In this document: one piece after another, positions 13,980-60,437 of the stretch
Numbering within the stretch: position 1 is the first letter of the stretch
Layout of the letters: each line of letters opens with the position of its first letter
From: a virus
Lineage: Duplodnaviria; Caudoviricetes
Reading direction: 5' to 3' (one strand)
IMG/VR virus record: IMGVR_UViG_3300031555_004728
Location: 160,001-224,000 of that record
Length of the DNA: 64,000 nt
Position numbers and translations under genes: made by a program
The notes under the pieces: generated by a model
The model's input: the letters and a program-made list of their open reading frames with translations, nothing else
Told to the model about the DNA's origin: nothing
Database searches by the model: none

Positions 13980-14061
13980 GAACCAATTTTGTTAAGTTAA
14001 ATTTCTCTAGTTATCGATAATTTACGAGAATTACAGAAAACTTACTTAACAAAACTGCAAC
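13980..14061 (+). repeat. 82-bp cassette-associated palindromic element, copy 1
   Basis: GAACCAATTTTGTTAAGT...ACTTAACAAAACTGCAAC; 11-bp perfect inverted arms. Confidence 0.97.
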
Positions 14062-14367
14062 CAACAAGAAATGTTTAATTATGTTGATCATTTATATGTA
14101 AATAAAAATAATTGTATAAATGGAACAAAAGTTATAGACTTTCCAACAGATAAAAATATAAATTTCATATCTGCATGTTTATGGAATGGTAATAACAGAA
14201 GTCATGAATATATAACAATACCATTATGTGCATTGGTTAGTAATAGAATTATAGAATTTAGAGATAATACTGGAGCTATATATGCATCAATTACAGTTTC
14301 TAGTGGTGTAGAAAAACTTACATTTGTATGTAACAATGAATGGTATTTATTATGTTTCTTTTTCTAA
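14053..14367 (+). other. Silent tail-fibre tip cassette 1
   Basis: Frame NCNQQEMFNYVDHLY...LLCFFF* begins in the repeat core after an in-frame TAA; no RBS before the internal Met. Confidence 0.8.
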
Positions 14368-14403
14368 TTATCTTGTATATGTGGAAGTACTATGATAAAG
14401 GGG

Positions 14404-14485
14404 GAACCAATTTTGTTAAGTTAAATTTCTCTAGTTATCGATAATTTCCTTTGATTACAGAAAACTTACTTAACAAAACTGCAAC
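14404..14485 (+). repeat. 82-bp element, copy 2
   Basis: Same arms and length as copy 1. Confidence 0.97.
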
Positions 14486-14836
14486 AAGCAATTTAAACAA
14501 ATACCAACTGATGATACATTTGCAATAAGTCATACATTAGATATTTCTGGATATGATATAACTACTGAACTTATAATAAATATCCATATTGATAATACAG
14601 ATTGGACATTATATCACAGACTTATAAAAAATCAATTAGAATTTGATGATGCTGATGTGATAACATATAGAACAGGTCAAGCTTTTTATATTCCTGACTA
14701 TTCAACAACATATTTATTAGCTGCAAATTGTAGAGTTTACAAAAATAAAACACTTACTATTTCAGCTGCAATATATCAAACAGGTGGGGTTACATCTACA
14801 AATAATACTTTTTGTATTTCAGCATGGTATAGATAA
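14477..14836 (+). other. Silent tail-fibre tip cassette 2 (no ATG)
   Basis: NCNKQFKQIPTDDTFAISHTLDISGY...FCISAWYR*; 119 sense codons open, no Met. Confidence 0.85.
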
Positions 14837-14839
14837 TAA

Positions 14840-14873
14840 AATAGAGTAAGAGTTAAAAAACTCTTACTCTATT
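14840..14873. terminator. Bidirectional terminator
   Basis: AATAGAGTAAGAGTT/AACTCTTACTCTATT between convergent cassette 2 and terminase. Confidence 0.7.
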
Positions 14874-14877
14874 ATTT

Positions 14878-15314
14878 TTACCAAGGAAAACCACCCATTC
14901 CATCATCATTATTATTTTTAAGACCATTCATTTCATTAAAAAATGACATATCATAATCTGAAAATTCATCTTCATATGTGGTATAATCAGATGGTGTTAC
15001 ATTTTCAGAATTTTCAGTTCTCATATTAATAGAACTTTGCATAATTTTTGCAGTCTCATTTTGTGAAGATTCGATAGCTTCTCTTAATATAGATTCATAA
15101 TCTAATAATTTAGCTCTTTTTCTCTCTTCTACGATAGATGATGCTATATCATCTGGTAATACTTTACTAAGTTCTGATTCACTCTTGTAAAGTAAACCTT
15201 GGTTTCTTGGTCTTTCTTCACGTTGTCCAGGAATATATCCAAAAATACTTAAGTTATTACCATGAACTAAAACATACATAGCAATTAAGTATGACATTAC
15301 GCTATCATCATGAA
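14878..15314 (-). CDS. terL: Terminase large subunit, exon 3
   Basis: Splicing restores GPGF-HDDSVMSYL, the nuclease-domain HDD motif. Confidence 0.85.
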
Positions 15315-15645
15315 CTTTATTTATATTAATCTTTATATCTCTATAAAGTTTAGACTATATCTTCATTAATAATTCTTTTACCAAATTATCAATGCCTCCC
15401 GTTTCGGTTTCCCTACTCTACTCAGTTACTCATTTAAGTATTTCTCTTAAATTACCCTTTCGATAGTCGTTGAACGTTCCTTAATTAATATTAAGGCTTC
15501 GCTGCTGATTGTCCAATCCTAAAGATTATTACACTTTGGTACTTTAGGCTCTAAGGAGTTTCCAGCAATTAAAGAGGTTTTACCTGATCTTCATTTATAA
15601 TTAGGCAATAATTTTACTATATTATCCTGTTACTATATTACCTTA
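15315..15645 (-). ncRNA. Group I intron 2 in terL (331 nt, no ORF)
   Basis: 5' exon ends in U and intron ends in G; core elements AATTGCTGG, AATCAGCAG, TTCAACGACTA, AAGATATAGTC. Confidence 0.88.
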
Positions 15646-16548
15646 AACCAGGTCCTGCTAGAATCTTTCCTGATGAATTTCTTATCAATCTGGAAATATC
15701 TCGTGTTACATTTTCTGCTACAAAATCATCTTTACACTGAGCAATTCTATCTGCTAAAATAGCAAACATAGTTTCTCTTGATTTTCCTTCAGTATAAACA
15801 CCATAATATGATTTCATAGATGCTTGTTTCTTAAGCATAGATTCGATTGTTTCTTTATCTTTCATATTAGATTCTGCTAATTCTTTAGCTTTATCATAAT
15901 AAAGTCTAGAAGCAATCTTTGATTGCAGTAAATGGTCAATAACACCATCACCAACTGAGTTACGTTCTATACATACAATAGCACGTGGTACATGTTTTGT
16001 AACTAATTCAATAATTATCTGTTCATATACCGTTTCACCAACATAAGAACATTCAAATTCAAATGCAGGTCTTTCTGTATATGGGTTAATACCTGTTATA
16101 GCATTATTATCTTTAAGTGTACCTGTAGAACAGTCAACTCCTACAATATAAGGTATTGTAGGATCAAGTTCTTCGTAAACCTTAAATTGATAATATTTCA
16201 TAATAAACAAAGTATCTATTGGTACTCTTACATGTTCTACGATATATTCGATATCTTCTTGAGCATATGGTGATAATGAAGAACCATGTAATCTTTGAAG
16301 AAGAATCTCTCTTCGAACTGTAAGGTTATTATTAATTTTAGCACTAATATTTTCTAGCCATTCTCCATCCAAACCAATTTGGAAGTATTGGAATTCTATA
16401 TAGATAATTCTATTACTATTACCAGCTGCAGCAAATTCTTCCATTTCTTCTTGTGTCATATCATAAAGTCTATCTGACCATCTTACACAAGCATCAAGTA
16501 CAAATTGTGCTGACATTCCTGCTGGTGAGTCCAAGTCTCCTGGTGTGC
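15646..16548 (-). CDS. terL: Terminase large subunit, exon 2
   Basis: (C)TPGDLDS ATPase coupling region; VGVDCS and IERNSVG nuclease motifs. Confidence 0.88.
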
Positions 16549-16837
16549 CATATATTAATCTTTATATCTCTATAAAGTTTAGACTATATCTTCAATATTA
16601 ATTCTATTACCAAATTAATATTGCCCTCTATTTCGGACTATAAGTCCTACTCTACTCACTTCTTCACTTAAATCTTTCTCTTAAGCTATGCTTTCGATAG
16701 TCGTTGAACGTTCCTTAATTATATATTAAGGCTTCGCTGCTGATTGACTCTATTCATTGGATTGTCACACTTCACTGTACCAATGACCTAACAAGTTCGT
16801 CCCAGCAATTAAAAGGGTTTTACTTACGCGCATTTCC
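16549..16837 (-). ncRNA. Group I intron 1 in terL (289 nt, no ORF)
   Basis: ACGT|ggaaat...tatatg|GCACA junction gives IFT-C-TPG; same P/Q/R/S-like core as intron 2. Confidence 0.88.
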
Positions 16838-17663
16838 ACGTAAAAATTCTTCCATATAAACTTCCATTTTTCTTTGCGGCTCTAGCAGCAGTATCAAATG
16901 TAGAAACTGAGTTTTCGATAATATCTTTAATGAATAATGTAAATTCAGGTTCATCATAATGAATAATTGCTGCAGTAAGACCTCTGGCTAGAGATACTGC
17001 TTTATCTTTAGTGGTAGCACCAGCTCTAATTTTAATTGAATTTTTTGTTACAGGATGTCTCATTTCAGTAGCATTATTAACAGCTTTTACAGTTTTACCA
17101 TTTTCATCATCAAAAAATGATTCAAATCGTAAATATTCTGGTAATAAATCTATCTGAAGTTTTATACGAGCTAAATTTTCTTTAGCATCAGGTTGTTGTT
17201 TATTTACAAAGATAAATGATGTATTAGTAGTACCGAATGAATAACCCCAAGCTTGAACAGATAATGCAGATTGTGTCTTCCCTTGTTGCCTTGGTAGGCA
17301 TAACCAGGAATCTATACCATTAACAAACAAAAATGCTTGTGCTATATTTCCTCTGTTAGCTTTATATGGTACTCCTTTAGGATTACCAGGGTCTGGAATT
17401 CTTGCTACTTCACGTAAATAATACCAAACGTTTCTTCTACATTCAGTTACAACTCTTGCTATTTGATCACGTGTTAAAGTACAAACTCCATTATCATCAC
17501 ATTGGTAAGGATCTATCTTTATAACTTCTGGGTCTTTTACTTCTAACATAAAATACCAGTTTTTAACACCTAGTGTTTTTAAGTCAGATGCTAATTGTAA
17601 CCATGATGTATTTGATGTACCAACATCAAATATACGGTTTCCAATTCGTTTTAATCTACCCAA
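16838..17663 (-). CDS. terL: Terminase large subunit, exon 1 (ATPase)
   Basis: PRQQGKT Walker A and IIHYDEPEF Walker B; exon lengths 826+903+437 = 2166 nt = 721 aa plus stop. Confidence 0.9.
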
Positions 17664-17742
17664 ATTATCACCATCCTTTCTTTAAAGAATAGTTTTTTTA
17701 ATGTAAAAATATTCTAGGTAGATAATCTACCTAGAATATTTA

Positions 17743-18063
17743 TTAATTATATATACCTACAATTTTCACAATTCTAAATGATGAAACATCTACTGATGAG
17801 GGGTTTTCTATATAAAAACTATTATCATCAGATTTTACAAAAGCATATAAATAATATTCAGAATATGGTAATATAAATGCATGTGAATTAATATCACGTG
17901 CAAATATGAATGTTTGATAGTATTGACCTGTTTTTACAAATGTAACTAACAAATATTCTATTTTTGAAATATTTTCATCATAAAATACTTCAGTTAATGG
18001 ATATCCATTATATAAAAAATATAAAACTTTATTTTTACTTTGTTTAAATTGTTGGTTGCAGTT
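17743..18063 (-). other. Silent tail-fibre tip cassette 3
   Basis: NCNQQFKQSKNKVLYFLYNG...IVKIVGIYN* in frame with the repeat core. Confidence 0.8.
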
Positions 18064-18136
18064 TTGTTAAGTAAGTTTTCTGTAATCTTCGTGAATTACT
18101 GAGAGATAGAGAAATTTAACTTAACAAAATTGGTTC
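18055..18136 (-). repeat. 82-bp element, copy 3
   Basis: Reverse-complement copy. Confidence 0.95.
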
Positions 18137-18219
18137 CCATCCCCTCTCCACCTTCTCTCACATACTATTTTTTATAATAATAACCTTAAAATAGCATTTT
18201 TAATTTTTACCCAATATTG

Positions 18220-18231
18220 ATATATTATTTT
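18220..18231 (+). promoter_or_regulatory. Putative early promoter ATATATTATTTT
   Basis: Recurs upstream of non-structural genes (13636-13647 -, 28893-28904 -, 28936-28947 +, 62224-62235 -). Confidence 0.5.
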
Positions 18232-18261
18232 AATAGATATTAAAGAAGGAGATTTATAATT

Positions 18262-20304
18262 ATGGGTAAAAAGAAAAGAAATTTCAAATATCTTAATAGA
18301 GAACTTAGTTGGATTAAATTTAATAATCGAGTTCTTGATGAAGCTAAAGATTCAAAACTTCCTATTAGTGAAAGGATTAAATTTCTAAGCATAGCATCAT
18401 CTAATTTCGATGAATTTTTTATGGTTCGAGTTGCATCTCTTAAGGATATGATTAATGTTGGATATAAAAAAAGAGATATATCTGGAATGACTTCATCTGA
18501 ACAAATAGTATCTATAAATAGATTAGTTCATTCTATAGTTACTAGTCAATATAATATTTATGAAAATTCTATAAGAAAAGAAATGGGATTAAATAAATAT
18601 AATTTTGTTAAATCAATAAAACAACTTTCAGATTCAGACATGAAATATATCTCAAAATATTTCAAGGATACAATATTTCCAGTATTAACACCTATTATTC
18701 TTAATAATAGTAGTACATTTCCATTAGTTAAAAATAAAGCAATCCATATAATCGTAAAGATTAAAAAGAAAAAATCTAAGAAAGAAGAATTTGCAATAGT
18801 TCAGATACCAACAAATTTACCTAGATTAGTTGTAATTCCAAATGATAAAGATAAGCCATCTGTTATTCTATTGGAAGAAGTTGTATCTGAATTTATCGGT
18901 AAGTTATTTAAATCTTATGATATATTGGAAATGTCTAAATTTAGAATTACTAGAAATGCAGGTCTTAATATTGATGAGGACGATGCTTCAGATTTATTAA
19001 ACAAGATTAAAAAGAAACTAGATGAAAGAGAATGGGGAGAAGTAATAAGACTTGAGATATTGAAAAATACAAATAAGTCTATATTTAAATTCTTAAAAAA
19101 TAAATTCAATGTCAATAAAAATAATATTTATGAAATAAATGGTCCATTAGATTTGACTTTCTTAATGGAAGTTTATGATTTAATAAAAGATATTGATGAC
19201 AAGAAACAAAAAGATTATATTCCAAAAGTTTATGATGAATTGGAATCTAATAACCTCTTTAATGTAATTTCTTCAAAAGATGTATTTTTACATCATCCAT
19301 ATGAATCATATAAACCTATAGTTGATTTCATAAAACAAGCAGCTGAAGACCCTGATGTATTAGCAATAAAACAAACTCTTTATAGAGTAAGTAGTAGTTC
19401 ACCAATTATCGAATCTTTAAGAAAGGCTGCTGAAAATGGTAAAGAAGTAACTGTACTTGTAGAACTTAAAGCCAGATTTGATGAAAATAATAATATTGAA
19501 TGGGCTAAAGTTTTAGAAAAAGCAGGCTGCCATGTAATTTATGGAATCCCAAATCTTAAGATTCATAGTAAAATATGTTTAGTTATAAGAAAAGAAAATG
19601 ATAAACTAAAATATTATACACATCTTGGTACAGGAAATTATAATGAAAAAACAGCAAAGATTTATACTGATATGTCATTATTCACATCAAATGAAGATAT
19701 TGGTAAAGATGCTATAACTTTATTTAATTTCTTAAGTGGTAATTCTAAACCAAGTAAATGGAATAAATTAATTGTAGCACCAGATAATCTAAAAGATGAA
19801 TTTATCAAACTTATTAATACAGAAGCAGAAGTAGCAAAAGAAGGAAAAAATGCACATATTATGGCAAAAATGAATTCACTTTGTGATAAAGATATCATTG
19901 ATGCATTATACAATGCAAGTAAATCAGGTGTTAAAATTGATTTAATTGTTAGAGGGATTTGTTCATTAAAACCTGGTGTTAAAGATTTAAGTGAAAACAT
20001 AAAGGTTAAATCTGTTGTAGGAAAATATCTAGAGCATTCAAGAATTTATTATTTCTGTAATTCTGGTCATCCAAAAGTATTCTGTAGTAGTGCAGATTGG
20101 ATGCCTCGAAATTTAGAACGTAGAGTAGAAATTTTATTTCCTATATTAGATATGAGGATTAAAGAACAGATAGTTGATATATTAGATTCTTTCTGGAAAT
20201 ATGATTATAAATCTTATAATATGAATTCAGATGGAAAATATATACGGGTTACAAATTCTACAAAAGAAAATAAGATTCATATTCAAAAATATCTCGAAGA
20301 ATAG
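18262..20304 (+). CDS. ppk1: Polyphosphate kinase 1
   Basis: NRELSW.FN.RVL, DEFFMVRVA, HHPYES, IKQTLYR, ELKARFDE, KIHSK, LEHSRIY, SADWMPRNL. Confidence 0.97.
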   Translation: MGKKKRNFKYLNRELSWIKFNNRVLDEAKDSKLPISERIKFLSIASSNFDEFFMVRVASLKDMINVGYKKRDISGMTSSEQIVSINRLVHSIVTSQYNIYENSIRKEMGLNKYNFVKSIKQLSDSDMKYISKYFKDTIFPVLTPIILNNSSTFPLVKNKAIHIIVKIKKKKSKKEEFAIVQIPTNLPRLVVIPNDKDKPSVILLEEVVSEFIGKLFKSYDILEMSKFRITRNAGLNIDEDDASDLLNKIKKKLDEREWGEVIRLEILKNTNKSIFKFLKNKFNVNKNNIYEINGPLDLTFLMEVYDLIKDIDDKKQKDYIPKVYDELESNNLFNVISSKDVFLHHPYESYKPIVDFIKQAAEDPDVLAIKQTLYRVSSSSPIIESLRKAAENGKEVTVLVELKARFDENNNIEWAKVLEKAGCHVIYGIPNLKIHSKICLVIRKENDKLKYYTHLGTGNYNEKTAKIYTDMSLFTSNEDIGKDAITLFNFLSGNSKPSKWNKLIVAPDNLKDEFIKLINTEAEVAKEGKNAHIMAKMNSLCDKDIIDALYNASKSGVKIDLIVRGICSLKPGVKDLSENIKVKSVVGKYLEHSRIYYFCNSGHPKVFCSSADWMPRNLERRVEILFPILDMRIKEQIVDILDSFWKYDYKSYNMNSDGKYIRVTNSTKENKIHIQKYLEE

Positions 20305-20339
20305 AAATAAGAGAGTGTAAAAAACACTCTCTTATTTTT

Positions 20340-23300: not shown

Positions 23301-23744
23301 ATAATCTAATACGAATGGTATTTCTTCTACATAAATAGTAGTATTTTTACTTAAGTAAATAACGTTTTGAGTAACTTGCGTAGCATACATATTTGCTTCA
23401 TCAAAAACTTTACTTAATTCTTTTTCATCTAAAACTAACAAAAATCTACATTTTGCCGCAGAACCAATTACATTACTTAATTGAAATAATGAAGCATATG
23501 CATAAATTGATTCTGGTAATGAAGCTTTTTGTATAAAAAATTCTTTCAATAACGTAGATGTTGCATAGAACGTATCTTCTGAAATAGTTGATAGCTGTTC
23601 TGTAGTAAATCCTATAAGACCAGAAGTTCTTGTGGAGATATCTTGGTCTGGGAAATACTTAGGTATGAGGACATCTGTTGTCAAGGTTTTAAAATCGAAA
23701 TTATCTCTATAATTTCTAGTTGTATTTACCAACTTTAGACTCAC
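20340..23744 (-). CDS. Large virion structural protein, probably baseplate wedge
   Basis: 1134 aa; YTTLGKDGNF and GGSD..SLEDLR segments resemble baseplate wedge proteins of large myophages. Confidence 0.6.
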   Translation of the reverse strand: MSLKLVNTTRNYRDNFDFKTLTTDVLIPKYFPDQDISTRTSGLIGFTTEQLSTISEDTFYATSTLLKEFFIQKASLPESIYAYASLFQLSNVIGSAAKCRFLLVLDEKELSKVFDEANMYATQVTQNVIYLSKNTTIYVEEIPFVLDYDIEITRKKTKLAATEYVYAAKYVVTEFNNSISDITNPYIKIRRSVDGYFAMEVIGHQCVREETTENLIDNSTINYPIIDVKFDGILAGFDAFYKAPGDTEYTQLLLRVENSLPEKDPFCFYKIIDENILRLSFSLNDSYFQPEFNSEIKIVTYTTLGKDGNFDTYTGKEVSIIKDTEEYNYNETFILGALVTSGSEGGSDTISLEDLRRLTATQFRTANVLSTDEDLEEFFNSYKDKNENRIKFIKRRDDLSSRLYTGFMVCKNEDYVYPTNTLDITMNYKSWNNPDGGYTYTQDPGYLYTYETENGYNNRVVPLFKLGFKEDKLFRNFQGQNVYQNIMKDYFKWLHGINPSVNPSYSSSEEDWESLYISSKNENETLEYYVENVIYTCPHCGFQSHRTFSDPDSGKELCYCCHNEGIKTGYNMADMVLTVFDVEEIESRITKDMFVYANPFLMSITKHPGLVNYYLTIINQTSLLDFLQYNIDVPNQFIINQATFERALSKDKEYSVKLRLMSSMQWNPELLIPGISNDDYVGKRTNLSKNYVRVMMIIEDGGVDSCYMEMVPTSYDKDLDVVTFECKFRTNDHVTLGNQMQIQDYTNEELGYNPYLMDYTSTEYTMDESEKLKLWVNEREYIDDSSENTGTETASVMRLRSAITEGSNTEEEVIDNSGIRGNFTYIINKTSKLIPMTDVEVKFVVLYKEYEVDDDYVYTTNNYPSQQAMFSLVNYNWTNIYSTFSDRVDFIKPLTMIRSSMYFRDDRLYNVANGDIYLYSSPMIKYSLMQHFDSNGAYTKNECGKTNYEMFTYLINQYRNQYNNLETVLYSIICQATYLDLKWYNTYGKSKNYIIGDSDEIIDRVNISIGFYIYLVAGTDAIKVTDEIKSFIKETIENLNTTGSNELHISNLMRTIENNFAYVDHIKFIGINGDIDASGSYKTTDTMGYSTDYQSIKNITKDINELSKEERFAYVPEMLCINKDQICLVLYNED

Positions 23745-23755
23745 CTCAATTCTTT

Positions 23756-25306: not shown

Positions 25307-25504
25307 GGCTAATTCACCTTCTTTCTGTATCTTTCTGCCTTAAACTATTGTTTTCTGGGTTAATTTGCATAGGTAGAAACAAGTAATTAAGGGTGATGTG
25401 TACAAATGTTTATTGTCATCTATTTTATACTCAGTAGGAAATCTCACGTCCTACTGAGTATATTTTGTTAAAATAATATATTTTTGGATAGGTTGTGAGG
25501 ATAG

Positions 25505-25586
25505 GAACCAATTTTGTTAAGTTAACTTTCTCTATCTATTGGTAATTTACGAGAATTACAGAAAACTTACTTAACAAAACTGCAAC
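25505..25586 (+). repeat. 82-bp element, copy 4
   Basis: Same arms and length. Confidence 0.96.
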
Positions 25587-25910
25587 CACCAAATATATTA
25601 TACAAAACATGAGACTGAAAATGGTATTGAATGTTTTAGAGTTGGTAACATGGTTGAACTTTCATGTATAACAACATTTGATTTTCAGACTGATGGTACA
25701 ATACCAGATAATGTTGTTATACCATATGGATATAGACCATATTATAGGGGTATTCGTTTTCCAGTAATTCTTAGATCTGGTAGTGAGTATACATGTTGTA
25801 AAGGTTTTTTAACAATTGACGGTGTATTAACATTTGATAGTGTATCTTATAGTTGGAGAGAAGTACATTTTGTTTTAAGTTATATAACAAATGATGATTA
25901 TCCATCTTAA
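25578..25910 (+). other. Silent tail-fibre tip cassette 4
   Basis: NCNHQIYY...FRVGNMVEL...IPYGYRP...LSYIT; RxGNxV/xPxGYRP pattern typical of phage fibre C-termini. Confidence 0.85.
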
Positions 25911-25924
25911 AAAATTAAGATGGG

Positions 25925-25975
25925 GAACCAATTTTGTTAAGTAAAATAAACAAAAACTTTTTTGTTAAGTAAAAT
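25925..25975 (+). repeat. Left half of the element upstream of the expressed tail fibre, with duplicated arm
   Basis: GAACCAATTTTGTTAAGT at 25925; TTTTGTTAAGTAAAAT directly repeated at 25932 and 25960. Confidence 0.85.
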
Positions 25976-26010
25976 TTTTATTGTAAAAATATACCATAAA
26001 TAAAATAAAA

Positions 26011-26022
26011 AACATTCTTTTA
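26011..26022 (+). promoter_or_regulatory. Putative late promoter of the tail fibre
   Basis: AACATTCTTTTA (AACA-N6-TA). Confidence 0.55.
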
Positions 26023-26100
26023 ATGTGAAATACTACGGAGTTCTATCCGTATTTTCCTTTATTATTTTCATGAAAATATTAAAACAAGGAGGATTTTGAT

Positions 26101-27528
26101 ATGAGTACAGTAAGACATCATATTGAAATGACCCACTTAGATTCGGGTGGAAATAAATATATACTTTATCCAAAGAATACCTTGGCTGACGTTCATACGA
26201 GCTCAACATCAGGTGTTACGATCGACGGAAAAGTTAATTTCTATGGAACTTGTACAACAGCTGCAGTTACAGCTGCTAAAACTGCTTCAATTAGCGGATT
26301 TACACTTGCACAAGGACAACATGTAACAATAGCTTTCACTAACGGAATTACAGTAGCAAGTCCTACTTTAAATATCAATAGTCTCGGTGCAAAAGCTATT
26401 TATCACAAAGGTGCAGCTTTAAAAGCAAATGTTATTAGAGCAGGTGCACGTGTTCAATTAGTTTATGACGGAACTAACTTTGAAGTATTAAACTTTGATG
26501 CACCATACGCACAAAGTAACAACACTACAAAGTTTTATTTGTTAGGTACACCTAACGCTGAAAATGGTGTTCCATCTGACCAATACTTCGATACAGGCGT
26601 ATATGTAAGTGCAACAGATGGTCAATTAGTTGCAAAATCATTCTCTGGTAATGGTTCTGCATTAACAAACTTGAATGCTGGAAATATTGCTTCTGGTACA
26701 GTAGCAGCAGATAGACTTCCAACTTCAGGTGCAACAGCTGGAACTTATGGTGAAAATGCTGGAGATAATACATCATTAGCTCATAGTGGTTCTCTTGTAG
26801 TTCCAAAAATTTCATTAGACAAATACGGTAGAATTACATCTGCTGAAAACATTGTTTATACAATGCCAGCAAATGAAAATACTGATGAAAAAGTAAAAGT
26901 AACTCAAAATGCTACTACAAAAGCATATGTAACAGGTACAACAACTGCAAATGGAAATGCTGGTGGATTATTATATGATCCAAATGTATATCTTGATACA
27001 ACATCTGGTAGATTCCATGCAGCAACAATGAACTCAAATACTTACTACCTCGGAGATACTTCTAACTACATTGACAGTTCAAATTATACTGGAACTGCAG
27101 CAAATGTCGGAACACTTTCTGAGTGGTTGGTAGATAGTTGTGCTTCAGATAGTGCTAACGGAGTCACCAATCAGGCACTTACAGCTAATCAGGGATATTT
27201 GTTACAAAATCAGATTGATGAGCTAAACTGCAACCTGAATGAATTTGGAACACCTATTACAACAATTTATACTGATACTGTAGAAAAATCTGTAGAGATA
27301 CCACCTAATGCTAGATTTTTAAAAGTTAGTTTTTGGAATGGTTATGATAAATATTATGGGGCAGATATGTTTCATGCAAGAGGATTAAAAACTAGTGGAT
27401 CGGTGAATATTATACTTAGAGTTAGGTATGATAATTACATAGCACAAATAACAATAACACCAAATTCAAATATACTTAAATTTAAAATGGAATCAGGTTC
27501 AATTAATGTAATGCTTCATTTTATATAA
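26101..27528 (+). CDS. Tail fibre / receptor-binding protein (expression locus: constant region codons 1-375 plus variable tip)
   Basis: GGAGG RBS; fibre motifs PTLNINSLGAKAI, LVYDGTNF, DKYGRIT, ALTANQGYLLQNQIDELNCNL; AAACTGCAACC core at 27225-27235 in the same N-C-N frame as all cassettes. Confidence 0.88.
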   Translation: MSTVRHHIEMTHLDSGGNKYILYPKNTLADVHTSSTSGVTIDGKVNFYGTCTTAAVTAAKTASISGFTLAQGQHVTIAFTNGITVASPTLNINSLGAKAIYHKGAALKANVIRAGARVQLVYDGTNFEVLNFDAPYAQSNNTTKFYLLGTPNAENGVPSDQYFDTGVYVSATDGQLVAKSFSGNGSALTNLNAGNIASGTVAADRLPTSGATAGTYGENAGDNTSLAHSGSLVVPKISLDKYGRITSAENIVYTMPANENTDEKVKVTQNATTKAYVTGTTTANGNAGGLLYDPNVYLDTTSGRFHAATMNSNTYYLGDTSNYIDSSNYTGTAANVGTLSEWLVDSCASDSANGVTNQALTANQGYLLQNQIDELNCNLNEFGTPITTIYTDTVEKSVEIPPNARFLKVSFWNGYDKYYGADMFHARGLKTSGSVNIILRVRYDNYIAQITITPNSNILKFKMESGSINVMLHFI

Positions 27529-27565
27529 ATATTATATATAAAATACTATTAAGAAGGTGAGGGGA

Positions 27566-27647
27566 GAACCAATTTTGTTAAGTTAAATTTCTCTATCTAT
27601 CGATAATTTCCTTTGATTACAGAAAACTTACTTAACAAAACTGCAAC
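27566..27647 (+). repeat. 82-bp element, copy 5
   Basis: Same arms and length. Confidence 0.97.
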
Positions 27648-27998
27648 CAACAAGAATTGGTAGCATCATTAACTCCACATGAATCATATGGAGCACATAT
27701 GAATCCTACATATGATGCACAACATTCACTTTTTACATTAGGTAGATTTAAAATTGTATCCGGAACTGTAGAAAGTAAGCATTTTCCATATAATAGTAAT
27801 TCTGGTGCGTATGAATATACTTCATATTTTTCATACCCATTTAATGTGATACCTAGAGTTTTGGTTACTGCAGAATATCCTGCAGGATTACCAGAAGTTT
27901 GTGTAGCTTCAGTAACTACTACATATGTAAAACTTTCATGTAGTTCACAATTAAATAGTTTATGGGTAAATTGGTTTGCATTTTCATTTGATGAATAA
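27639..27998 (+). other. Silent tail-fibre tip cassette 5 (H-type-lectin/gp53-like)
   Basis: NCNQQELVASL...FSYPFNVIPRVLVT...VNWFAF. Confidence 0.85.
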
Positions 27999-28034
27999 AA
28001 AAAAGAAGAGGGTTTTTAATCCTCTTCTTTTTTC

Positions 28035-28859: not shown

Positions 28860-29073
28860 GATAAAATCCTCCTTATATAAGACATTTCTACAAAAATAAT
28901 ATATTTACAAAAACGAATATTATTCATTAATATAGATATATTATTTTGATGTACAAGGGCACTTGTACACCACCTATTAATTATTCAACAGTGCCCTTGT
29001 GCACCTTATTTTTTATTTATTAATTAAAACAAATTATTAAATCATAAAATATTAGAAAGGAAAGTATGAATTT

Positions 29074-29466: not shown

Positions 29467-29467
29467 T

Positions 29468-29503: not shown

Positions 29504-29506
29504 ATT

Positions 29507-30157: not shown

Positions 30158-30242
30158 ATTATTAAATCCCTTTCTCTATATTTAATGAACCCAAAACAAA
30201 GTTTTAATAAAACTTTGTTTTAGGAATTTTTGTTAAAATATT

Positions 30243-31070
30243 CTAATACCAATTGCCTGCTTCAACGCCAATATATTGACTTTCGCTACCATAATAAAAA
30301 TAAACCGTTGTACTTAACGGTGCAACTTCATTAAATGTAATTTGTACAGCATTATATGCATATCCTATAGCTTTTATAGTACCACCAGAATCTATACCAT
30401 TATATTTTAAACCACATGAAGTAGTTACACCATTAATGACAGTTCTAGATGTTCCAGCCATATTATTTATAATCCATGGATCATGAATATAAATACTTCC
30501 ACCAGAATCAGATCCACAAACATATTGTCCATATGGTAATTTGTAATAATATCTTTGACATAACCTCAGTTCTTCATCATATCTTCTAGGAATATTTCCT
30601 GTAAACTTAGTACCCTTTTCAAGTTTTATAAAGTCTATATTATAACTATCAGTCATTAATACTGAAAATTCATCATAATTTTCTATTGGACCTCCTGTGT
30701 GTCTTGTATATGATAACTTTAAATTTGGTGATATAATAAATGAATCACTTACAGATCCATTTATTATATATGATCTTATAACTCCATCAAAACTTATAGT
30801 TATAGTATACTGAGCATTATCATCTATTGTATACTCTAAGATTTGTTTTAGTTCAACTGATTTAACAGTTCCTATATTAATAGATATACCTGAATTATCA
30901 TTTAATTTTGATACTATTGGCATAGTATCATTTGGATTATTTATAGTAATATATTTAATCCACATATCTGCTGTATATCCACTCGCTCCAGTATTAAAAC
31001 TAGTACCTCTTTGCCATACTTGAAAATTTCCATTAATTAAAATATTAGGGTTAACAAATTGGTTGCAGTT
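30243..31070 (-). other. Silent tail-fibre tip cassette 6 (large, carbohydrate-binding-like)
   Basis: NCNQFVNPNILINGNFQVWQRG...KLEKG...EELRLCQRYY, a pattern typical of phage fibre modules; the annotated Met is internal. Confidence 0.88.
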
Positions 31071-31143
31071 TTGTTAAGTAAGTTTTCTGTAATCTAAGGA
31101 AAATCTCGATAACTAGAGAAAGTTAACTTAACAAAATTGGTTC
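31062..31143 (-). repeat. 82-bp element, copy 6
   Basis: Reverse-complement copy; interior identical to copy 8. Confidence 0.96.
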
Positions 31144-33346: not shown

Positions 33347-33428
33347 GAACCAATTTTGTTAAGTTAACTTTCTCTAGTTATCGATAATTTACGAAGAATA
33401 CAGAAATCTTACTTAACAAAACTGCAAC
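33347..33428 (+). repeat. 82-bp element, copy 7
   Basis: Same arms and length. Confidence 0.96.
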
Positions 33429-33824
33429 CAAATAACATGCCAGATATATCATTATTCTGTTGATGGTAATAATCCTTTAGGTATACCTTGGGGTTGTTTT
33501 ATATATAAATATTCCAATGGATTAATGATGATATCTGCTTGGCAAACAGTTAGTGATATTCCTGTATCATCATCATGGGGATCTTTATATTCATCTGCCA
33601 GAATTGGTGGGATTGCATACGGATATCAATCTAATACATGGGTACCAGTAACATTTAAAAATGTATTTTTTGAAATTGCATGGTCAAACCACCCGAACCT
33701 ATTAACATTGGGAGGTGGAGGATTTTATCATGAACAAACACAAGATATATATCTTGTATCTGCTGTAAATATTCCAGATGTTGATGCTACTATATATTAT
33801 CATACAGTAGGTATATGGAAATAA
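33420..33824 (+). other. Silent tail-fibre tip cassette 7
   Basis: NCNQITCQ...YKYSNGLM...WGSLY...VGIWK*; fibre C-terminal pattern. Confidence 0.85.
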
Positions 33825-34755: not shown

Positions 34756-35094
34756 TTAAAATCCTATTACTAAATAACTGATTTTATATGTACTATCTTC
34801 TGAAAGTGATCCATTAAAATTCCATCCTTTAATATTAACCTTAGTTCTCTCTATAGTACCAACACCCACATTTATAATTGTATCAATATACTCATTTCCT
34901 GCATTTTTTGTAACACTAACAAATGGCTCTTGTGTATAACTAACAGGATATGTCAACTGTCCTTGAAGTATCCACTCTGATATTGGGACAATATCAATAT
35001 ATCCAAAACATATTTTAAGACCATTTTCAAATATTAAATATCCTGATGTTCCATCTTCAAGTTGTTTTCTATATTCTATAAGTCGATTGCAGTT
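34756..35094 (-). other. Silent tail-fibre tip cassette 8 (gp53-like)
   Basis: NCNRLIEY...SGYLIFENGLKICFG...TYPVSY...YLVIGF*; core variant AACTGCAAT is synonymous. Confidence 0.87.
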
Positions 35095-35167
35095 TTGTTA
35101 AGTAAGTTTTCTGTAATCTAAGGAAAATCTCGATAACTAGAGAAAGTTAACTTAACAAAATTGGTTC
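35086..35167 (-). repeat. 82-bp element, copy 8
   Basis: Reverse-complement copy. Confidence 0.96.
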
Positions 35168-42142: not shown

Positions 42143-43168
42143 ATGTTTGATGTACATGAAAGAGACAGACAAGAAATTGACACGATTTTGGATAACCTGA
42201 AAAAGCAGGGCAAAATTGATTTAGAACTTAAAGGTGATAATGAAAGACAACTTTTCCAAGACCAATTTCACCAGCAAGCAATTCAGATGGGATTATTACA
42301 ACAACCCAGTTCTGAATTTGCAAGTTCGTATAATGTACTTAGAGAATTTTTACTTAGTAAGAAATTTGAAAATCTTTCTAGTAATACTTTAAAAATTTAC
42401 TATAATACGATTTTCAATTTTATTGAACAAATGGATGAAGGTAAGACTCTATTTGATGTCAAGACTGCTGATATCAGAGCTTATTTAATGCACTATCAAG
42501 ATGAACATAAGTGTTCTAGTCTAACTATAGATAATATGAGAAGGTGTTTCTCATCATTTTATAATTGGCTAGAAGATGAGGATTATGCTATTAAAAACCC
42601 GGTTAAAAAGATAAAGAAAATAAAAAGTGATAAAGTTATAAAGAAACCATTTAGTCATGAAGAATTGGAAATGATTAAAGATGCTTGTAGAAACTATAGG
42701 GAATTATCACTTATAGAGTTTCTGTATTCTACAGGTATTCGTGTTAGTGAACTTTGTGGACTAGATATTTCAGATTTAGATTTTAACCAAAGAGAAGGTA
42801 TTGTATTTGGTAAAGGTAGCAAAGAACGTGTTATATATTTTGATGTTAGAAGCAAAGTCCATTTATTACGATATTTAAATACAAGAGTCGATAATAATCC
42901 GGCATTATTTGTTACTAAGAAATATCCATTTAATAGATTAGAAAAAAGCGGTGTCGAATCTATTATAAGAGAAATAGGTAAACGTGCTGGAGTGGAAAAA
43001 TGTCATCCACATAGATTTAGAAGAACATTTGCTACTAACCTTCTCGATAGAGGGGTTCCTATCGAGCAAGTACAGATTTTATTAGGTCATAATAAAATAG
43101 ATACTACGTTATTATATGCTACAGTAAATACACAATCAGTTAAATTAAATCATGACAGATTCGTTTAA
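42143..43168 (+). CDS. XerD-like tyrosine recombinase
   Basis: TGIRVSEL (R), GKGSKER (K), HRFRR (HxxR), LLGH, TLLY (Y); SAM-like N-domain. Confidence 0.93.
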   Translation: MFDVHERDRQEIDTILDNLKKQGKIDLELKGDNERQLFQDQFHQQAIQMGLLQQPSSEFASSYNVLREFLLSKKFENLSSNTLKIYYNTIFNFIEQMDEGKTLFDVKTADIRAYLMHYQDEHKCSSLTIDNMRRCFSSFYNWLEDEDYAIKNPVKKIKKIKSDKVIKKPFSHEELEMIKDACRNYRELSLIEFLYSTGIRVSELCGLDISDLDFNQREGIVFGKGSKERVIYFDVRSKVHLLRYLNTRVDNNPALFVTKKYPFNRLEKSGVESIIREIGKRAGVEKCHPHRFRRTFATNLLDRGVPIEQVQILLGHNKIDTTLLYATVNTQSVKLNHDRFV

Positions 43169-49067: not shown

Positions 49068-49149
49068 GAACCAATTTTGTTAAGTTAAATTTCTCTAGTT
49101 ATCGATAATTTACGAAGATTACAGAAATCTTACTTAACAAAACTGCAAC
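49068..49149 (+). repeat. 82-bp element, copy 9
   Basis: Same arms and length. Confidence 0.97.
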
Positions 49150-49542
49150 CAACAAGAAATTTCTGAAACTTTAAACTATAGAAATGCTTATATAGAAGTA
49201 TTAAAAAATGATGATCAGACAAATACTACAATAACACCTGGTACAGATACTACTTTAAATATGTTTACAATACCTAGTACTGGCATATATTTTATAGTAG
49301 CATCCATAACTGCTACTAGTAAAGAAGATAATAAATATTTAATATTTCATTTGATTAAAACAACTTCAACAGGAACATATTGGACACCTATAGAACTTTG
49401 TGATAGTGGTTCTTATACAAGACTTTCAGGTTCTTGTATGGTTCCACTTGATAAAGGTACTATTTTAACACTTAAAGCAAGTACAAATAATTCAAGTAAT
49501 TTAAGTGTTAGTTATCGTTTTAGTATAGTAAAATTAGTATAA
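49141..49542 (+). other. Silent tail-fibre tip cassette 9 (C1q/BclA-like)
   Basis: NCNQQEISE...FTIPSTGIYFI...LDKGTILTL...FSIVKLV*. Confidence 0.85.
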
Positions 49543-52956: not shown

Positions 52957-53038
52957 GAACCAATTTTGTTAAGTTAAATTTCTCTATTTCTCGATAATTT
53001 ACGAAGAATACAGAAAACTTACTTAACAAAACTGCAAC
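52957..53038 (+). repeat. 82-bp element, copy 10
   Basis: Same arms and length. Confidence 0.96.
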
Positions 53039-53329
53039 CAGCAAGATCTTGAAACTTATATATCATCATCCACAATGCCATATGTATTTATAACATGTAG
53101 AGAAACTGATTCTACTGAAGTTGTAGATATCTTAAATTGTATACTTGATGAATTACCTAATGATATTTTATTTGGTATTAGGTTAGAAGGTCATAATATT
53201 CCAAGACAGTTTGGATCAGGGTATTTATATGATAATAGTAATTATGGTTCACTAATATTATCTACATGGGATGCACCTGCATTTTTTAGAATTTATAATA
53301 AAGAAATAACAAGAATAGTTTTAACCTAG
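53030..53329 (+). other. Silent tail-fibre tip cassette 10
   Basis: NCNQQDLETYISSSTMPYVF...RIVLT* in frame with the core. Confidence 0.8.
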
Positions 53330-53356: not shown

Positions 53357-53438
53357 GAACCAATTTTGTTAAGTTAACTTTCTCTATCTTTCGATAATTT
53401 CCTTTGATTACAGAAATCTTACTTAACAAAACTGCAAC
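53357..53438 (+). repeat. 82-bp element, copy 11
   Basis: Same arms and length. Confidence 0.96.
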
Positions 53439-53726
53439 CAGCAAGAAATTATAAATTGTATAGAATCCAATCATATATGGCTTTCCGATAATACTGGTGA
53501 AGATATTACAACATCTGTATATAATTTAGCAACATTTTTCCCAATTAATACATCATTCTGTTGCATACTTCAAACACCATCTGGTATTTGGAATGGTACA
53601 GGTTTTGTATATAAAGGAGCTGAAAATCAATTAAATGGGACATTCATATTATCAAGTGTTGCAGGTATATGTACTGTAAGAATATTAAATGGATATGCAC
53701 TAGGACAAATGTTATATACATTTTAA
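53430..53726 (+). other. Silent tail-fibre tip cassette 11 (no usable start)
   Basis: NCNQQEIINCIESNHIWLSD...GQMLYTF*; 98 sense codons open, missed by the ORF track. Confidence 0.82.
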
Positions 53727-57316: not shown

Positions 57317-57723
57317 CTATTATAGTTTACATATCTGACTAAGTCAAATGCTATAATTCTTAGTTTATTATCATTTTTATTTTTACTACCCAATGCTCTG
57401 AGTTTTAACTCATAGTCTTTTTCCTTAAGATCTTCAAGAATATACACATATTCTTCTTTTATAGGTTTTACTATAATTTCTTCTTCTGTGAAACTAACTA
57501 ATCTAGCTATTATAGTTTTAGCATCCACTGTCATAAAATCAAGAATATTTTTAAATTTATTATCAATTCTAAGTGGATCATATGTTATAGGAAGACCGCA
57601 ACCAAATATATTATTTGATTTATTCTGTGCTTCGTATATTTGTTCTTTTACTAAATCTATATGAATAGATTTAGTTCCTAATATAAAATCAGCTTTATCT
57701 CTTTTAAATATTATATTCTTCAT
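57313..57723 (-). CDS. Hypothetical protein
   Basis: 136 aa, overlapping stop/start. Confidence 0.65.
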   Translation of the reverse strand: MKNIIFKRDKADFILGTKSIHIDLVKEQIYEAQNKSNNIFGCGLPITYDPLRIDNKFKNILDFMTVDAKTIIARLVSFTEEEIIVKPIKEEYVYILEDLKEKDYELKLRALGSKNKNDNKLRIIAFDLVRYVNYNR

Positions 57724-57725
57724 GA

Positions 57726-59609
57726 TTATACTCCTAAGTCTTTACATGCTTTCTTATATAATTTATCCAACGATGGTAAATTAAACCATTTTCTACCAGT
57801 ACATAACCAGTTTTTAGTTTGGAAATTATCAAAAGCTTCTTTAGCAACATCATCATGAAAATCTGATGTTTCTTTTGGTAATAATCTGACATTAGTTATA
57901 GTATGAACTTTTCTTGGACCACCAAGTACATTAAATTGACCTGCATCAAGAATACACTTAAAGTGTAATGTACTAGGGTCAATATTCATGGCGAATATTG
58001 TACTTGGATAGAAACTACTCATATCCATATCTATAGCATATTGGAATATATTATTTGACTTTTTACTTCCATATAAAGCCATACCAGTTGGAAGATTTAA
58101 TCTAGGATCACCTACAAGTGCACCCTCGAATCCAACTTTTTTCTTATCATCATCATCATCCTCATCTGGTTCTTCATCACTACCAAATGGTGTTAGGTTT
58201 ATATTTTCACCAGGAACCATTCCACGTGTTAAGAAATCCAAATATTGATAATTCCTAAGTTTTACAGTTTGTTTAAATTCTGAATCGTATGGTGTTATAT
58301 TTTGATATGCCGTAGCATAATAGTTTTCTAAATCTTTAGTTTTATCTTCAATACCTTTTTGAAGTAAAACGTCTTTGATGTTGTATATAAAATATTTCTT
58401 ATAATTCTTATAAGAGAAATATTTAATACTTCCTTCTTCACCATAATCTAATTTAGAATCACCCACTACTTTTTTACCTATATAATTAAGTGAGAATGAA
58501 CGTATTTCTGATTGACCTTTTCTAATAGCCGCATACGTTCTCATCTGACATGTATAATTAGTATATGATGTATTAAAAAAGTAGTCTGTTTTTGATTTAA
58601 TATCAAAATGAAAATTATCTTTTTTAAACCAGCATTCTTTAACTGGAAAATCTGGATGACAGAATAAATCCTTAGGATCTAATCCTAACTTCTGAGCACG
58701 CTTATAAATATAATTAACGTCAAATTCGAAGTTCCAGAAAGTTACAAAATCAAATTTCCTTTTATTAATTAATTCAAAAAGATGAACTAACATCTTTTTT
58801 TCATCTTTATAGAAAAAGAATTTATAATCTAAGACTCCATATACATCATCAAACATCTCATGAAGTTCTTTCTTTATATCTTCTTGATGCTCGATAAAAT
58901 CTATTTCCTGTTCAAGTCTACTTTTATGGAGTTCTCTTCTATATAATTCTTTATCTCTTTCACTTTGTGTCATATATGTTAAATCACGTTCAACATATTC
59001 ACGTCCAACCAAAGCAAATGTGTAACACTTGGATTCATCGTTATCCACAAGTGTTACTAAATCAATAGGACATGTATCTGGATTAGCCAATCCTTCAACA
59101 TCCAAAAAATCCGTCTCTATATCGGCAAATGCCTTTGATATAGGTTTAGGTCTTGAATTGTCATACATCATCATCCATTTATATCTATATAGTGCTCTTA
59201 CATCATAATCAGCACCATATACAAATGGATACATTAAAAAATTCTTAAGTTCTGAGTATCTATGAGTTTTATAGATATCAGAGGCTTGTCTTTTTAAACC
59301 ATCACCACCATCTTCAATTATGGCTGGTATAATATCTTTAAATGGTACACTTTTCTTTTCACACTTATCAAGATATTGATAGTTCAAACTGTATGGAACT
59401 CCATAAGGATCTAAATGTGTTGTCCTGTATTCTGGTTTTTCAAAGTATATGTCCACTGGTGGATTTGGTATTGTTGTAACGTGTTTTTCTTCTGTATCCA
59501 AATCTTTCCAAACGATATATAAAATATCTGGAGTTCCTTCTTTTTTGTTTTCTTTTACGTATTGGATATCTACAAGCATTGCAGAATCCTTTGGTATAAT
59601 TTTACCCAT
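57726..59609 (-). CDS. Family-B DNA polymerase subunit (3'-5' exonuclease plus motif A)
   Basis: ADIETD (ExoI), WNFEFD (ExoII), YNIKDV (ExoIII), FEGALV, DMDMSSFYPS; motifs B and C not seen. Confidence 0.8.
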   Translation of the reverse strand: MGKIIPKDSAMLVDIQYVKENKKEGTPDILYIVWKDLDTEEKHVTTIPNPPVDIYFEKPEYRTTHLDPYGVPYSLNYQYLDKCEKKSVPFKDIIPAIIEDGGDGLKRQASDIYKTHRYSELKNFLMYPFVYGADYDVRALYRYKWMMMYDNSRPKPISKAFADIETDFLDVEGLANPDTCPIDLVTLVDNDESKCYTFALVGREYVERDLTYMTQSERDKELYRRELHKSRLEQEIDFIEHQEDIKKELHEMFDDVYGVLDYKFFFYKDEKKMLVHLFELINKRKFDFVTFWNFEFDVNYIYKRAQKLGLDPKDLFCHPDFPVKECWFKKDNFHFDIKSKTDYFFNTSYTNYTCQMRTYAAIRKGQSEIRSFSLNYIGKKVVGDSKLDYGEEGSIKYFSYKNYKKYFIYNIKDVLLQKGIEDKTKDLENYYATAYQNITPYDSEFKQTVKLRNYQYLDFLTRGMVPGENINLTPFGSDEEPDEDDDDDKKKVGFEGALVGDPRLNLPTGMALYGSKKSNNIFQYAIDMDMSSFYPSTIFAMNIDPSTLHFKCILDAGQFNVLGGPRKVHTITNVRLLPKETSDFHDDVAKEAFDNFQTKNWLCTGRKWFNLPSLDKLYKKACKDLGV

Positions 59610-59710
59610 ATAAATACCTACTTTCTTTTAATATGAGTTTAAATTATTGTGCTTTGGTATATAAAAAAGAACTATGATGAAGAAGACAAAAATCTTCTTC
59701 ATCATATAAA

Positions 59711-60364
59711 TTAAATTGCCCAATATCCATCTACTGATATTAAACCTTCAATTTTATTAGTATTATCATATCCAGAACCACTTACTGTATAACATAATAA
59801 TGCAAATCCAGTGTCCCATAATTCTCTTATATAATAATTTTTTACAAACCACATTCCACCATGCAACGTAAACTGTGGACAGGCATTATAAATATTAAAT
59901 GGATAAAGACATGCTGTTGATGGTGTACCTGCACTATCTGATGTTGCACCATTAATACCTGATGCTACACACCATGCTTTACAATAGCCATTTTGATATT
60001 TTATATAATTCCAGTTATTTATTTTACCGCTTTCTACCATAGGATTTTCACGAGCCCACGGTTCAAATTTACGTACAACTGTAACACCATCAGAGTCATG
60101 CATTGTTAAATATGCTCTTCTATATACTCTTCCATTAATAGTTGTGAATTCTTGAAATTTATATATCCATGGAGATCCAGGTGAATTGAATGAACCGTTT
60201 CCATCATAAACCATAAGTCTACCAGCAGAAACTTGTGGGAGATTTAAACATGTTTCTGCCTCAGTATTTCCTTTTACATAATATATACCACTATCTAAAA
60301 CTGTATTAATATCAACATTTTCTAAGTATCCTTTAATAATAACAAGATTTTGAGAGTTGCAGTT
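59711..60364 (-). other. Silent tail-fibre tip cassette 12 (pyocin-knob-like plus C-terminal domain)
   Basis: NCNSQNL...DINTVLDSGIYY...NLP...GRLMV...QEFTT...VYRR...WNYIKYQNG...VDGYWAI*. Confidence 0.88.
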
Positions 60365-60437
60365 TTGTTAAGTAAGATTTCTGTAATCTTCGATAATTCT
60401 CTAAAGATAGAGAAATTTAACTTAACAAAATTGGTTC
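60356..60437 (-). repeat. 82-bp element, copy 12
   Basis: Reverse-complement copy. Confidence 0.95.

Follow-up and report, generated by a model that had tools for sequence, protein, structure and literature searches.

The constant head of a single tail-fibre gene is found in the DNA of near-identical phages joined to many different C-terminal tips, always at one fixed in-frame joint. This gene lies in a 64,000-nucleotide (nt) stretch, hereafter the window, which corresponds to positions 160001-224000 of the 275,512-bp genome of a jumbo-phage from gut (IMG/VR record IMGVR_UViG_3300031555_004728; direct terminal repeats, 28.5% G+C). Throughout this genome, 35 copies of an 82-nt palindromic element are each followed by a silent reading frame, here called a cassette, and sequence comparison supports the cassettes as alternative C-terminal tips of the one fibre gene. 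Cassettes are named by the window position of their element or, with the prefix g, by their genome position (e.g. g123012), the latter names including cassettes outside the window. A switching of fibre tips had been put forward in the original prediction, made from the window sequence, and it is supported here by alternative constant-tip joints at the residues N-C-N in DNA assemblies and by the homology of the currently fused tip, tip0, to a silent cassette.

One fibre head with different tips in related genomes

Seven forms of the fibre were compared, all from separate assemblies: six public protein sequences, of which P0001 is that of the genome analysed here, and L007, a 21-kb part of an 88-kb metagenome contig that is 91-97% identical to our genome. 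The constant regions were nearly identical (0-18 of 378 residues different) and carried seven different tips, with every joint placed exactly at N-C-N. The comparison of fused tips among related genomes, which had been suggested with the original prediction, therefore gave different tips on near-identical constant regions joined at that point. The six public forms are:

P0001: constant region of our genome; tip0
P0122: constant region 378/378 identical; tip 89/89 identical to the silent cassette g50766
P0121: constant region 377/378; tip 88% identical to g155124
P0003: constant region 361/378; tip 99% identical to the window cassette 25505
P0123: constant region 365/378; tip 48% identical to g29595, a distant match
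P0002: constant region 360/378; tip starting NCNQQ, not found in our library

Four of the tips fused elsewhere are cassettes that are silent in our genome, with identities of 99%, 100%, 88% and 83%. One head is thus re-assorted at the DNA level with many tips at a fixed in-frame joint.

In L007, the flanks of the head are also visible. A head block equivalent to window 25923-27235 (96.8% identical) was found there between our genome positions 143280 and 142760, joined to a homologue of the g142766 tip (104/125 amino acids), in a slot about 43 kb from that occupied in our genome and with flanks otherwise collinear with ours on both sides. The block starts with the 5' piece of the element (18 exact bases, or 21 with one mismatch) and ends with the 3' core of the element; the two parts of a split element thus enclose the head as a module. 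Here, both flanks of the head were exchanged at the two element ends, and it was the constant head, not the tip, that changed place. The repeats shared at the joints measure 11-13 nt on the right and about 18-23 nt on the left; as this is far below the k-mers used by assemblers, the fusions are not assembly chimeras. At the corresponding places, L007 has no g155124 and no g143236 cassette.

Other collections gave no further forms. The three element-holding contigs found in IMG/VR (L001-L006) are fragments of the same phage (99.9-100% identical), and neither these records nor the rest of IMG/VR gave a relative of the fibre protein. Phage GenBank records searched by blastn with window 25400-28100 gave no relatives, and a dyad pattern search of IMG/VR and GTDB genomes was discarded, as it returned unrelated chance palindromes only (L008-L012, 35-50% GC, no similarity).

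The 82-nt element, its cassettes and the head module

The twelve elements listed for the window in the original prediction, eight on the + and four on the - strand, were all recovered at the same positions with their 18-nt end ACTTAACAAAACTGCAAY, which gave 12 matches at 0 mismatches compared to a shuffle mean of 0.03 (0/100 shuffles reached 12). A gap-free alignment of these copies over 82 nt has about 60 invariant columns. Genome-wide, the 35 full elements with cassettes are accompanied by one split copy that brackets the fibre constant region, the isolated 5' piece of which lies at window 25925, at the start of the fibre-gene region. The features of the window are as follows:

13980..14061, + strand: element copy 1, palindromic, 82 nt
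14050..14367, + strand: cassette of copy 1, QNCN..., 105 codons + stop
14404..14485, + strand: element copy 2, in tandem with copy 1
14474..14836, + strand: cassette of copy 2, 120 codons, no ATG
18055..18136, - strand: element copy 3
17743..18066, - strand: cassette of copy 3, 107 codons, no ATG
25505..25586, + strand: element copy 4
25575..25910, + strand: cassette of copy 4, 111 codons, fused to the constant region in P0003 (99% identity)
25925..25945, + strand: 5' element piece GAACCAATTTTGTTAAGTaAA, 1 mismatch, opens the head module
25925..27235, + strand: head (expression) module, from element 5' piece to element 3' core
26101..27528, + strand: expressed tail-fibre gene, 475 amino acids
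27225..27235, + strand: junction core AAACTGCAACC, N-C-N frame, end of the predicted helix 350-377
27236..27528, + strand: tip0, the currently fused tip, homologous to the silent cassette g123012
27566..27647, + strand: element copy 5
27636..27998, + strand: cassette of copy 5, 120 codons, H-type-lectin / gp53-like
31062..31143, - strand: element copy 6
30243..31073, - strand: cassette of copy 6, 276 codons
33347..33428, + strand: element copy 7
33417..33824, + strand: cassette of copy 7, 135 codons
35086..35167, - strand: element copy 8, ends ...GCAAT
34756..35097, - strand: cassette of copy 8, 113 codons, no ATG
42143..43168, + strand: Xer-like tyrosine recombinase, 341 amino acids, putative switching enzyme
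49068..49149, + strand: element copy 9
49138..49542, + strand: cassette of copy 9, 134 codons
52957..53038, + strand: element copy 10
53027..53329, + strand: cassette of copy 10, 100 codons
53357..53438, + strand: element copy 11, in tandem with copy 10
53427..53726, + strand: cassette of copy 11, 99 codons
60356..60437, - strand: element copy 12
59711..60367, - strand: cassette of copy 12, 218 codons

When 39 copies from two genomes were aligned, the length was fixed at 82 nt and 57/82 positions were invariant. The element has the structure of a long, imperfect palindrome, in which the 11-bp arms, TTTTGTTAAGT and ACTTAACAAAA, are near-invariant (one substitution in 1 of the 39 copies) and enclose an inner stem, TTTCT/AGAAA, and a variable centre of fixed length. 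Its unpaired ends, GAACCAA and CTGCAAC, are conserved across these copies. The palindrome is bordered on its left and right by AACCAA (AACC at the head module), in the manner of a short direct repeat, for example at 13981-13986 and 14058-14063, and this sequence could represent either a crossover sequence or a target duplication. An empty-site model based on these flanks and on an ATG at codon 8 in six cassettes was rejected, as it fails for most cassettes.

The fibre gene had been reported to contain the end of the element, and this was borne out by the sequence: AAACTGCAACC is present at 27225-27235 of the gene (26101-27528) in the N-C-N frame. Of the 31 occurrences of the core 10-mer AAACTGCAAC in the 275.5-kb genome, 30 belong to elements and the remaining one to the fibre gene. 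In all 35 elements an in-frame TAA within the right arm is followed by QNCN and by 90-276 open codons. The range in the window is 99-276 codons when counted from CAA, which agrees with the 98-275 of the original prediction, counted from N. In a shuffled genome, frames of at least 90 open codons followed 14 of 39,316 sampled positions. No long open reading frame (ORF) enters the elements in any of the three upstream frames, as checked for the 12 window copies, and the in-frame TAA keeps the tip of each slot untranslated.

The cassettes are distributed over 22 loci between 29.5 kb and 220 kb of the genome, 13 on the + and 22 on the - strand, with three at most in tandem and the loci otherwise dispersed. 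At least 13 alternatives scattered over at least 46 kb had originally been proposed; with tip0 included, the number is 36, over about 190 kb, and the essential genes named as neighbours were confirmed, namely nrdD (window 50144-52897), a family-B polymerase (exonuclease domain at 57726-59609) and the terminase.

Several cassettes resemble fibre tips. The silent cassette g123012 is homologous to the expressed tip0 (31% identity, E 6e-12), cassette 31062 matches the C-terminal part of a PHROG annotated as 'tail fiber protein' (E 2e-18), and for cassette 25505 the match is to the C-terminal end of 'minor tail protein' PHROGs. C-terminal fibre domains of the H-type-lectin / gp53-like kind are similar to tip 27566 (score 0.95, template modelling score about 0.77 by query), and cassette 49068 gave weak C1q/TNF/BclA_C-like matches, below the curated cut-offs. 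Pfam searches with eight tips produced sub-threshold matches only.

It could be argued that no switching is involved and that each cassette is a small gene of its own with an unusual start, or that the element, as a selfish palindromic repeat, came to stand upstream of orphan gene fragments by chance. Such a reading would account for the start codon, ATG or TTG, present within the first ten codons of 8/35 cassettes, for the G-rich run similar to a Shine-Dalgarno (SD) sequence upstream of most element copies, and for the entry of tip 27566 in a public atlas as a protein called from an internal Met. We regard it as the least probable of the explanations considered: 4/35 cassettes contain no ATG, GTG or TTG at all (script count), the first start lies at scattered positions elsewhere, and QNCN stands directly after the stop codon in 35/35. 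Moreover, the four silent tips fused to the head in other assemblies (83-100% identity) and the paralogy of tip0 with a cassette run counter to it.

The constant region of the fibre is present as a single copy in the genome, and many homologues of the fibre ORF were found, with tail-fibre domains such as Phage_fiber_2, tail-collar and H-lectin. The head module, of 1.3 kb, comprises the element 5' piece, a leader, the SD sequence AAGGAGG, the ATG at 26101, 378 constant codons and the core AAACTGCAACC. An AlphaFold model of the fibre, of low confidence (mean predicted local distance difference test score 64.7, predicted template modelling score 0.32) and used for secondary structure only, places N-C-N at the end of a long helix (350-377) and predicts a tip rich in beta structure, about 100 residues long, behind it. 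No short proteins with the end of the constant region came up when they were searched for.

In the leader, a terminator-like hairpin with a T-run was observed about 50 nt 5' of the fibre ATG (window 26034-26051, +), which may serve in insulation from slot transcription or in regulation. At the left end of the module (window 25925-25975, +) the 5' arm TTTTGTTAAGT occurs twice with a degenerate right-arm-like stretch in between, giving the impression of a collapsed element in front of the arm that belongs to the module; this may be a scar of earlier exchanges. A scan of 25300-28200 for sigma-70-type promoters detected 16 sites, compared to 16.3 expected. A different motif, AATAATATATCA, looks like a phage promoter element. 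It has 57 copies in the genome at up to 1 mismatch (e.g. window 13941, 18229 and 49006), nine of which lie within 120 nt upstream of an element, when about 0.4 would be expected from the share of sequence. In addition, the gene upstream is divergent in 23/35 cassettes, and both observations together suggest that many slots are ready for transcription.

The promoter-like motif enriched upstream of elements, the capacity of the element to form a long hairpin and the use of self-splicing group I introns elsewhere in this genome could also be read as signs of joining at the level of RNA or translation (trans-splicing, template switching or ribosome hopping at AAACUGCAAC), the element being a structured RNA leader and the cassettes immobile. 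However, the stability of the hairpin does not exceed that of shuffled sequence (z -0.65), and as the conserved stems never vary among the 39 copies, covariation gives no support to a folded element. The element matched nothing in Rfam at E <= 1, the matches above gathering score in the window being two group I introns elsewhere. As the alternative fusions are present in DNA assemblies, including the 88-kb contig with both head flanks changed, no RNA mechanism is needed, and joining after transcription is considered very improbable. Two specific forms of it were discarded on inspection of the sequence: group I or group II trans-splicing, because, in frame, neither the exon-U / omega-G rule nor the GUGYG...AY rule is satisfied by the ends of the shared core, and a gene-60-like translational bypass from the mini-ORF TTG-TTA-AGT-TAA behind the G-run, as no landing codon gives the frame of the tip.

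The cassettes were further compared between our genome and L007. For two cassettes that are silent in both, the ratio of non-synonymous to synonymous substitution rates (dN/dS) was 0.22 and 0.14, and silent cassettes are by this measure under purifying selection. The counterpart of g134766 in L007 (18650, +) is truncated, with 59 open codons and a dN/dS of 0.84, and looks like a decaying cassette. One and the same element interior recurs at as many as five dispersed loci whose tips are unrelated, whereas between the two genomes orthologous loci have interiors that differ. Two dispersed L007 loci have one interior in common. This pattern of sharing indicates that element interiors are exchanged or homogenised within genomes.

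Candidate recombinase and proposed exchange

A single tyrosine recombinase is encoded in the genome, at window 42143-43168, and is its sole match to a recombinase family. The protein is Xer-like (NF040815, 238.8 bits compared to a cut-off of 220), its nearest solved structures are XerA and XerD, and it carries a SAM_4-type N-terminal domain. Models of integron integrases (IntI) scored well below their cut-offs (TIGR02249 integrase_gron, 91.9 bits vs 265; PRK15417, 52.4 vs 435). The genome gave no match to serine recombinases (Resolvase family, PF00239) or to Y1 transposases, and none to the reverse transcriptase family PF00078 at E <= 0.01. Convergent with the recombinase gene is a gene for a DUF4376 protein (window 43225-44130, -) that matches a 'tail fiber protein' PHROG (E 1.6e-7) and could be a fibre-associated protein or chaperone.

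The explanation that we consider fairly probable is a DNA-level switch of the receptor-binding protein, in which one head is exchanged among 35 slots by site-specific recombination through the Xer-like enzyme. The exchange would be a conservative, site-specific double crossover, with crossover one in the left end of the element (the G-run plus GAACCAATTTTGTTAAGT) and crossover two in the core of the right end, both catalysed by the single Xer-like tyrosine recombinase of the phage. It could proceed through two successive inversions, which would restore collinearity and swap two short segments, or through cassette exchange between genome copies in the replicating pool; cassettes in either orientation could then be used, and essential genes would not be deleted. 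The head would swap with the slot interior of roughly 50 nt, the chosen tip would become the C-terminus of the fibre and the old tip would be left as a silent cassette, so that a phage population might present up to 36 different fibre tips. We infer that switching is programmed and frequent, and that the Xer-like protein is its enzyme because it was the only recombinase found, hence by elimination.

A further-reaching version is advanced more tentatively, as we find it somewhat doubtful. According to it, the head, bounded by the split ends of the palindrome, would hop at high frequency among 35 dispersed slots equipped with promoters, by Xer-like catalysis and possibly on a folded site similar to the attC sites of integrons, and every burst would be a mix of many of the 36 tips.

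Several observations weigh against a dedicated exchange of the head. A double exchange has to be assumed, since essential genes would be lost by simple recombination between sites in direct orientation. The head module does not carry the right arm of the element, and the element itself is unlike the classical core site of tyrosine recombinases, with its 11-bp arms 44 nt apart; the hairpin stability and the lack of covariation described above do not speak for a special site either. The Xer-like enzyme, linked to the exchange by elimination only, could have another job, and its gene is not adjacent to the fibre gene but about 15 kb apart. The flanks of the moved head are visible in one relative only, L007. 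Finally, the sequencing runs with this phage, 20 in number and with none of RNA among those listed, are all available as Logan contigs, and those of four runs (about 9x) gave the head joined to tip0 only, among the joints listed (15/69); in runs X1 and X6, a contig spans 26643-27593 with 0 differences. As contigs break at elements and rare variants are dropped, minority junctions may have escaped notice here. When the four runs were compared to window 13901-33900, no joint at 27235 was present among the joints listed, and in X7 and X8, the more distant runs, the contigs end short of the junction, at 27115 and 27167.

These contigs, with no minority junction among the joints listed, are also compatible with unprogrammed reshuffling, the element being a 'linker' kept alike by gene conversion and head and tips being re-assorted occasionally by general or short-homology recombination and selected for in-frame joins, with no dedicated recombinase. 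The observed variants all come from different assemblies and not from one population, and gene conversion would agree with the mosaic polymorphisms and with the interiors that are identical between dispersed loci. Likewise, the presence or absence of a cassette between tandem elements, such as g155124, absent in L007, is the expected product of direct-repeat recombination, and orphan C-terminal toxin cassettes of polymorphic toxin systems are described as coming into use through recombination (PMC3482391). Nevertheless, we judge this explanation unlikely, if by no means negligible. Homologies of 11-13 nt on the right and about 18-23 nt on the left are a poor substrate for homologous recombination, yet seven fusions are found with constant regions 0-18/378 residues apart. 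The fixed length of 82 nt, the near-invariant arms and the invariant ends GAACCAA/CTGCAAC in 39 copies from two genomes exceed what homology would need, and purifying selection on silent cassettes needs frequent use. We therefore keep site-specific exchange by the Xer-like recombinase as the preferred reading.

Genomic surroundings and comparison with known switching systems

The terminase large subunit gene (window 14878-17663, -) consists of three exons, which match terminase PHROGs, and is interrupted by two group I introns at 15331-15608 and 16560-16867 (Rfam RF00028, 81.5 and 79.8 bits), parts of the two being about 87% alike (repeat families D4 and D5). A very long open frame (window 1-8583, -; more than 2,861 amino acids) extends past the start of the window. 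Two unusual auxiliary genes for a phage were also detected, a full-length polyphosphate kinase with all four PPK domains (18262-20304, +) and a microbial-type PARG-like protein (28035-28859, -). A 42-nt perfect-hairpin repeat, 98% alike, is present at 29465-29506 and 33872-33913 within longer inverted arms (29410-29509 and 33869-33968), and is probably a shared bidirectional terminator.

Systems that vary surface or tail proteins by DNA rearrangement offer several comparisons. In the R64 shufflon, the Rci recombinase rearranges segments clustered in a few kb behind pilV by local inversions. Shufflons and the phage system both combine a constant N-terminal part with alternative receptor-recognising C-termini and short conserved joint sites, and both have a tyrosine recombinase, in the phage as the putative enzyme; here, the core AAACTGCAACC is common to the fibre gene and the 35 cassettes, and seven tips are fused at N-C-N. 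In contrast to shufflons, no clustered segments or local inversions were found in the phage, the cassettes being at 22 loci on both strands among essential genes and the head having moved about 43 kb between collinear flanks. Furthermore, the site here is an 82-nt palindrome, and in the visible case the head moved, not the tip. Among the publications found, compact shufflons in prophages come nearest (PMC6109161, PMC13596623), including the Rin shufflon of Bifidobacterium prophages (PMC6109161).

As with the invertases Gin and Cin, the C-terminal part of a phage tail fibre would be changed here by site-specific DNA rearrangement, thereby altering host range. In Mu (Gin) and P1 (Cin), serine invertases choose between two alternatives in one compact segment, whereas the present genome has no serine recombinase match and 36 alternatives.

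Mycoplasmas provide the comparison for the enzyme. The vsa genes of M. pulmonis, rearranged by HvsR, have a unique 'expression site'. In M. agalactiae, Xer1, a Xer-type recombinase, is described as the proven driver of multigene expression switching at the vpma locus, which is clustered in 9.6 kb and switched by inversions at sites in the 5' untranslated regions (PMC2268961). As depicted in that source, such switches share with the phage a Xer-like recombinase, a unique expression-competent 5' part, silent genes with short recombination sites at their 5' ends and the expression of one member at a time. They differ, on the same account, in being clustered bacterial loci for lipoproteins and not for virion proteins; the phage joint lies inside a coding region and the slots are genome-wide.

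Integrons resemble the phage system in that cassettes dependent on a start context are tied to a palindrome and that the tyrosine recombinase has a SAM_4-type N-terminal domain. The palindrome of integrons, attC, is imperfect and measures about 60-140 nt, its outer arms being conserved and its centre variable; the cassettes of both systems are promoter-less. In contrast, the phage recombinase is not an IntI by model score, there is no single array behind an attI site and Pc promoter, and the fusion here is translational. Moreover, the phage palindrome is on the 5' side of the ORF, and its core-like heptamers follow each other in the opposite order to those of attC, judged against the consensus as generally known.

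Silent reservoirs are also known for Neisseria pilE/pilS and Borrelia vlsE, where silent segments are donated by homologous gene conversion inside variable regions. They share with the phage one expressed gene and a reservoir of silent variants, but whole domains are exchanged here at one fixed joint. Diversity-generating retroelements (DGRs), which diversify phage fibre tips, need a reverse transcriptase and a template repeat. DGRs point-mutate one scaffold. This genome has no reverse transcriptase match; in a repeat scan of the window, the element family was accompanied only by two-copy families of 40-169 nt (D3-D12), none of which was read as a template/variable pair. Orphan C-terminal toxin cassettes occur in the polymorphic toxin systems CdiA-CT and Rhs (PMC3482391). 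According to the portrayal in that source, these are likewise start-less C-terminal modules stored apart, with a short conserved junction motif and used via recombination; unlike the phage cassettes, they are usually arrayed after the main gene, without a dedicated palindromic site or recombinase, and encode toxins with immunity genes.

The architecture had not been recognised as a described system in the original prediction, and in the literature searches, too, no publication was found that describes a phage with a dispersed library of tips or with a head module that moves. In function, it would be comparable to shufflons or to the expression-site switches of mycoplasmas, with a phage receptor-binding protein as the target. 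There is a realistic chance that its geometry of recombination, with the head moving and the tails staying, is new.

In gene calling, the 35 cassettes are either left out or given a start at an internal Met codon, and assemblies break at the elements; such systems will therefore go unnoticed in metagenomic phage genomes. Phage infection is limited mainly by host range. To our knowledge, natural changes of fibre tips comprise two alternatives (Gin/Cin), a handful (shufflons) or point mutation of one scaffold (DGRs), compared to one fibre with 36 complete, structurally unrelated tips that are re-assorted between near-identical strains. If the exchange is programmed, it would be the largest receptor-binding repertoire known for a single virus, and it would be usable as a natural tool for cassette exchange. 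If, in addition, hopping of the head at high frequency holds true, the phage would possess a counterpart of the expression sites of antigenic variation, with a geometry undescribed for any shufflon, invertase or integron.

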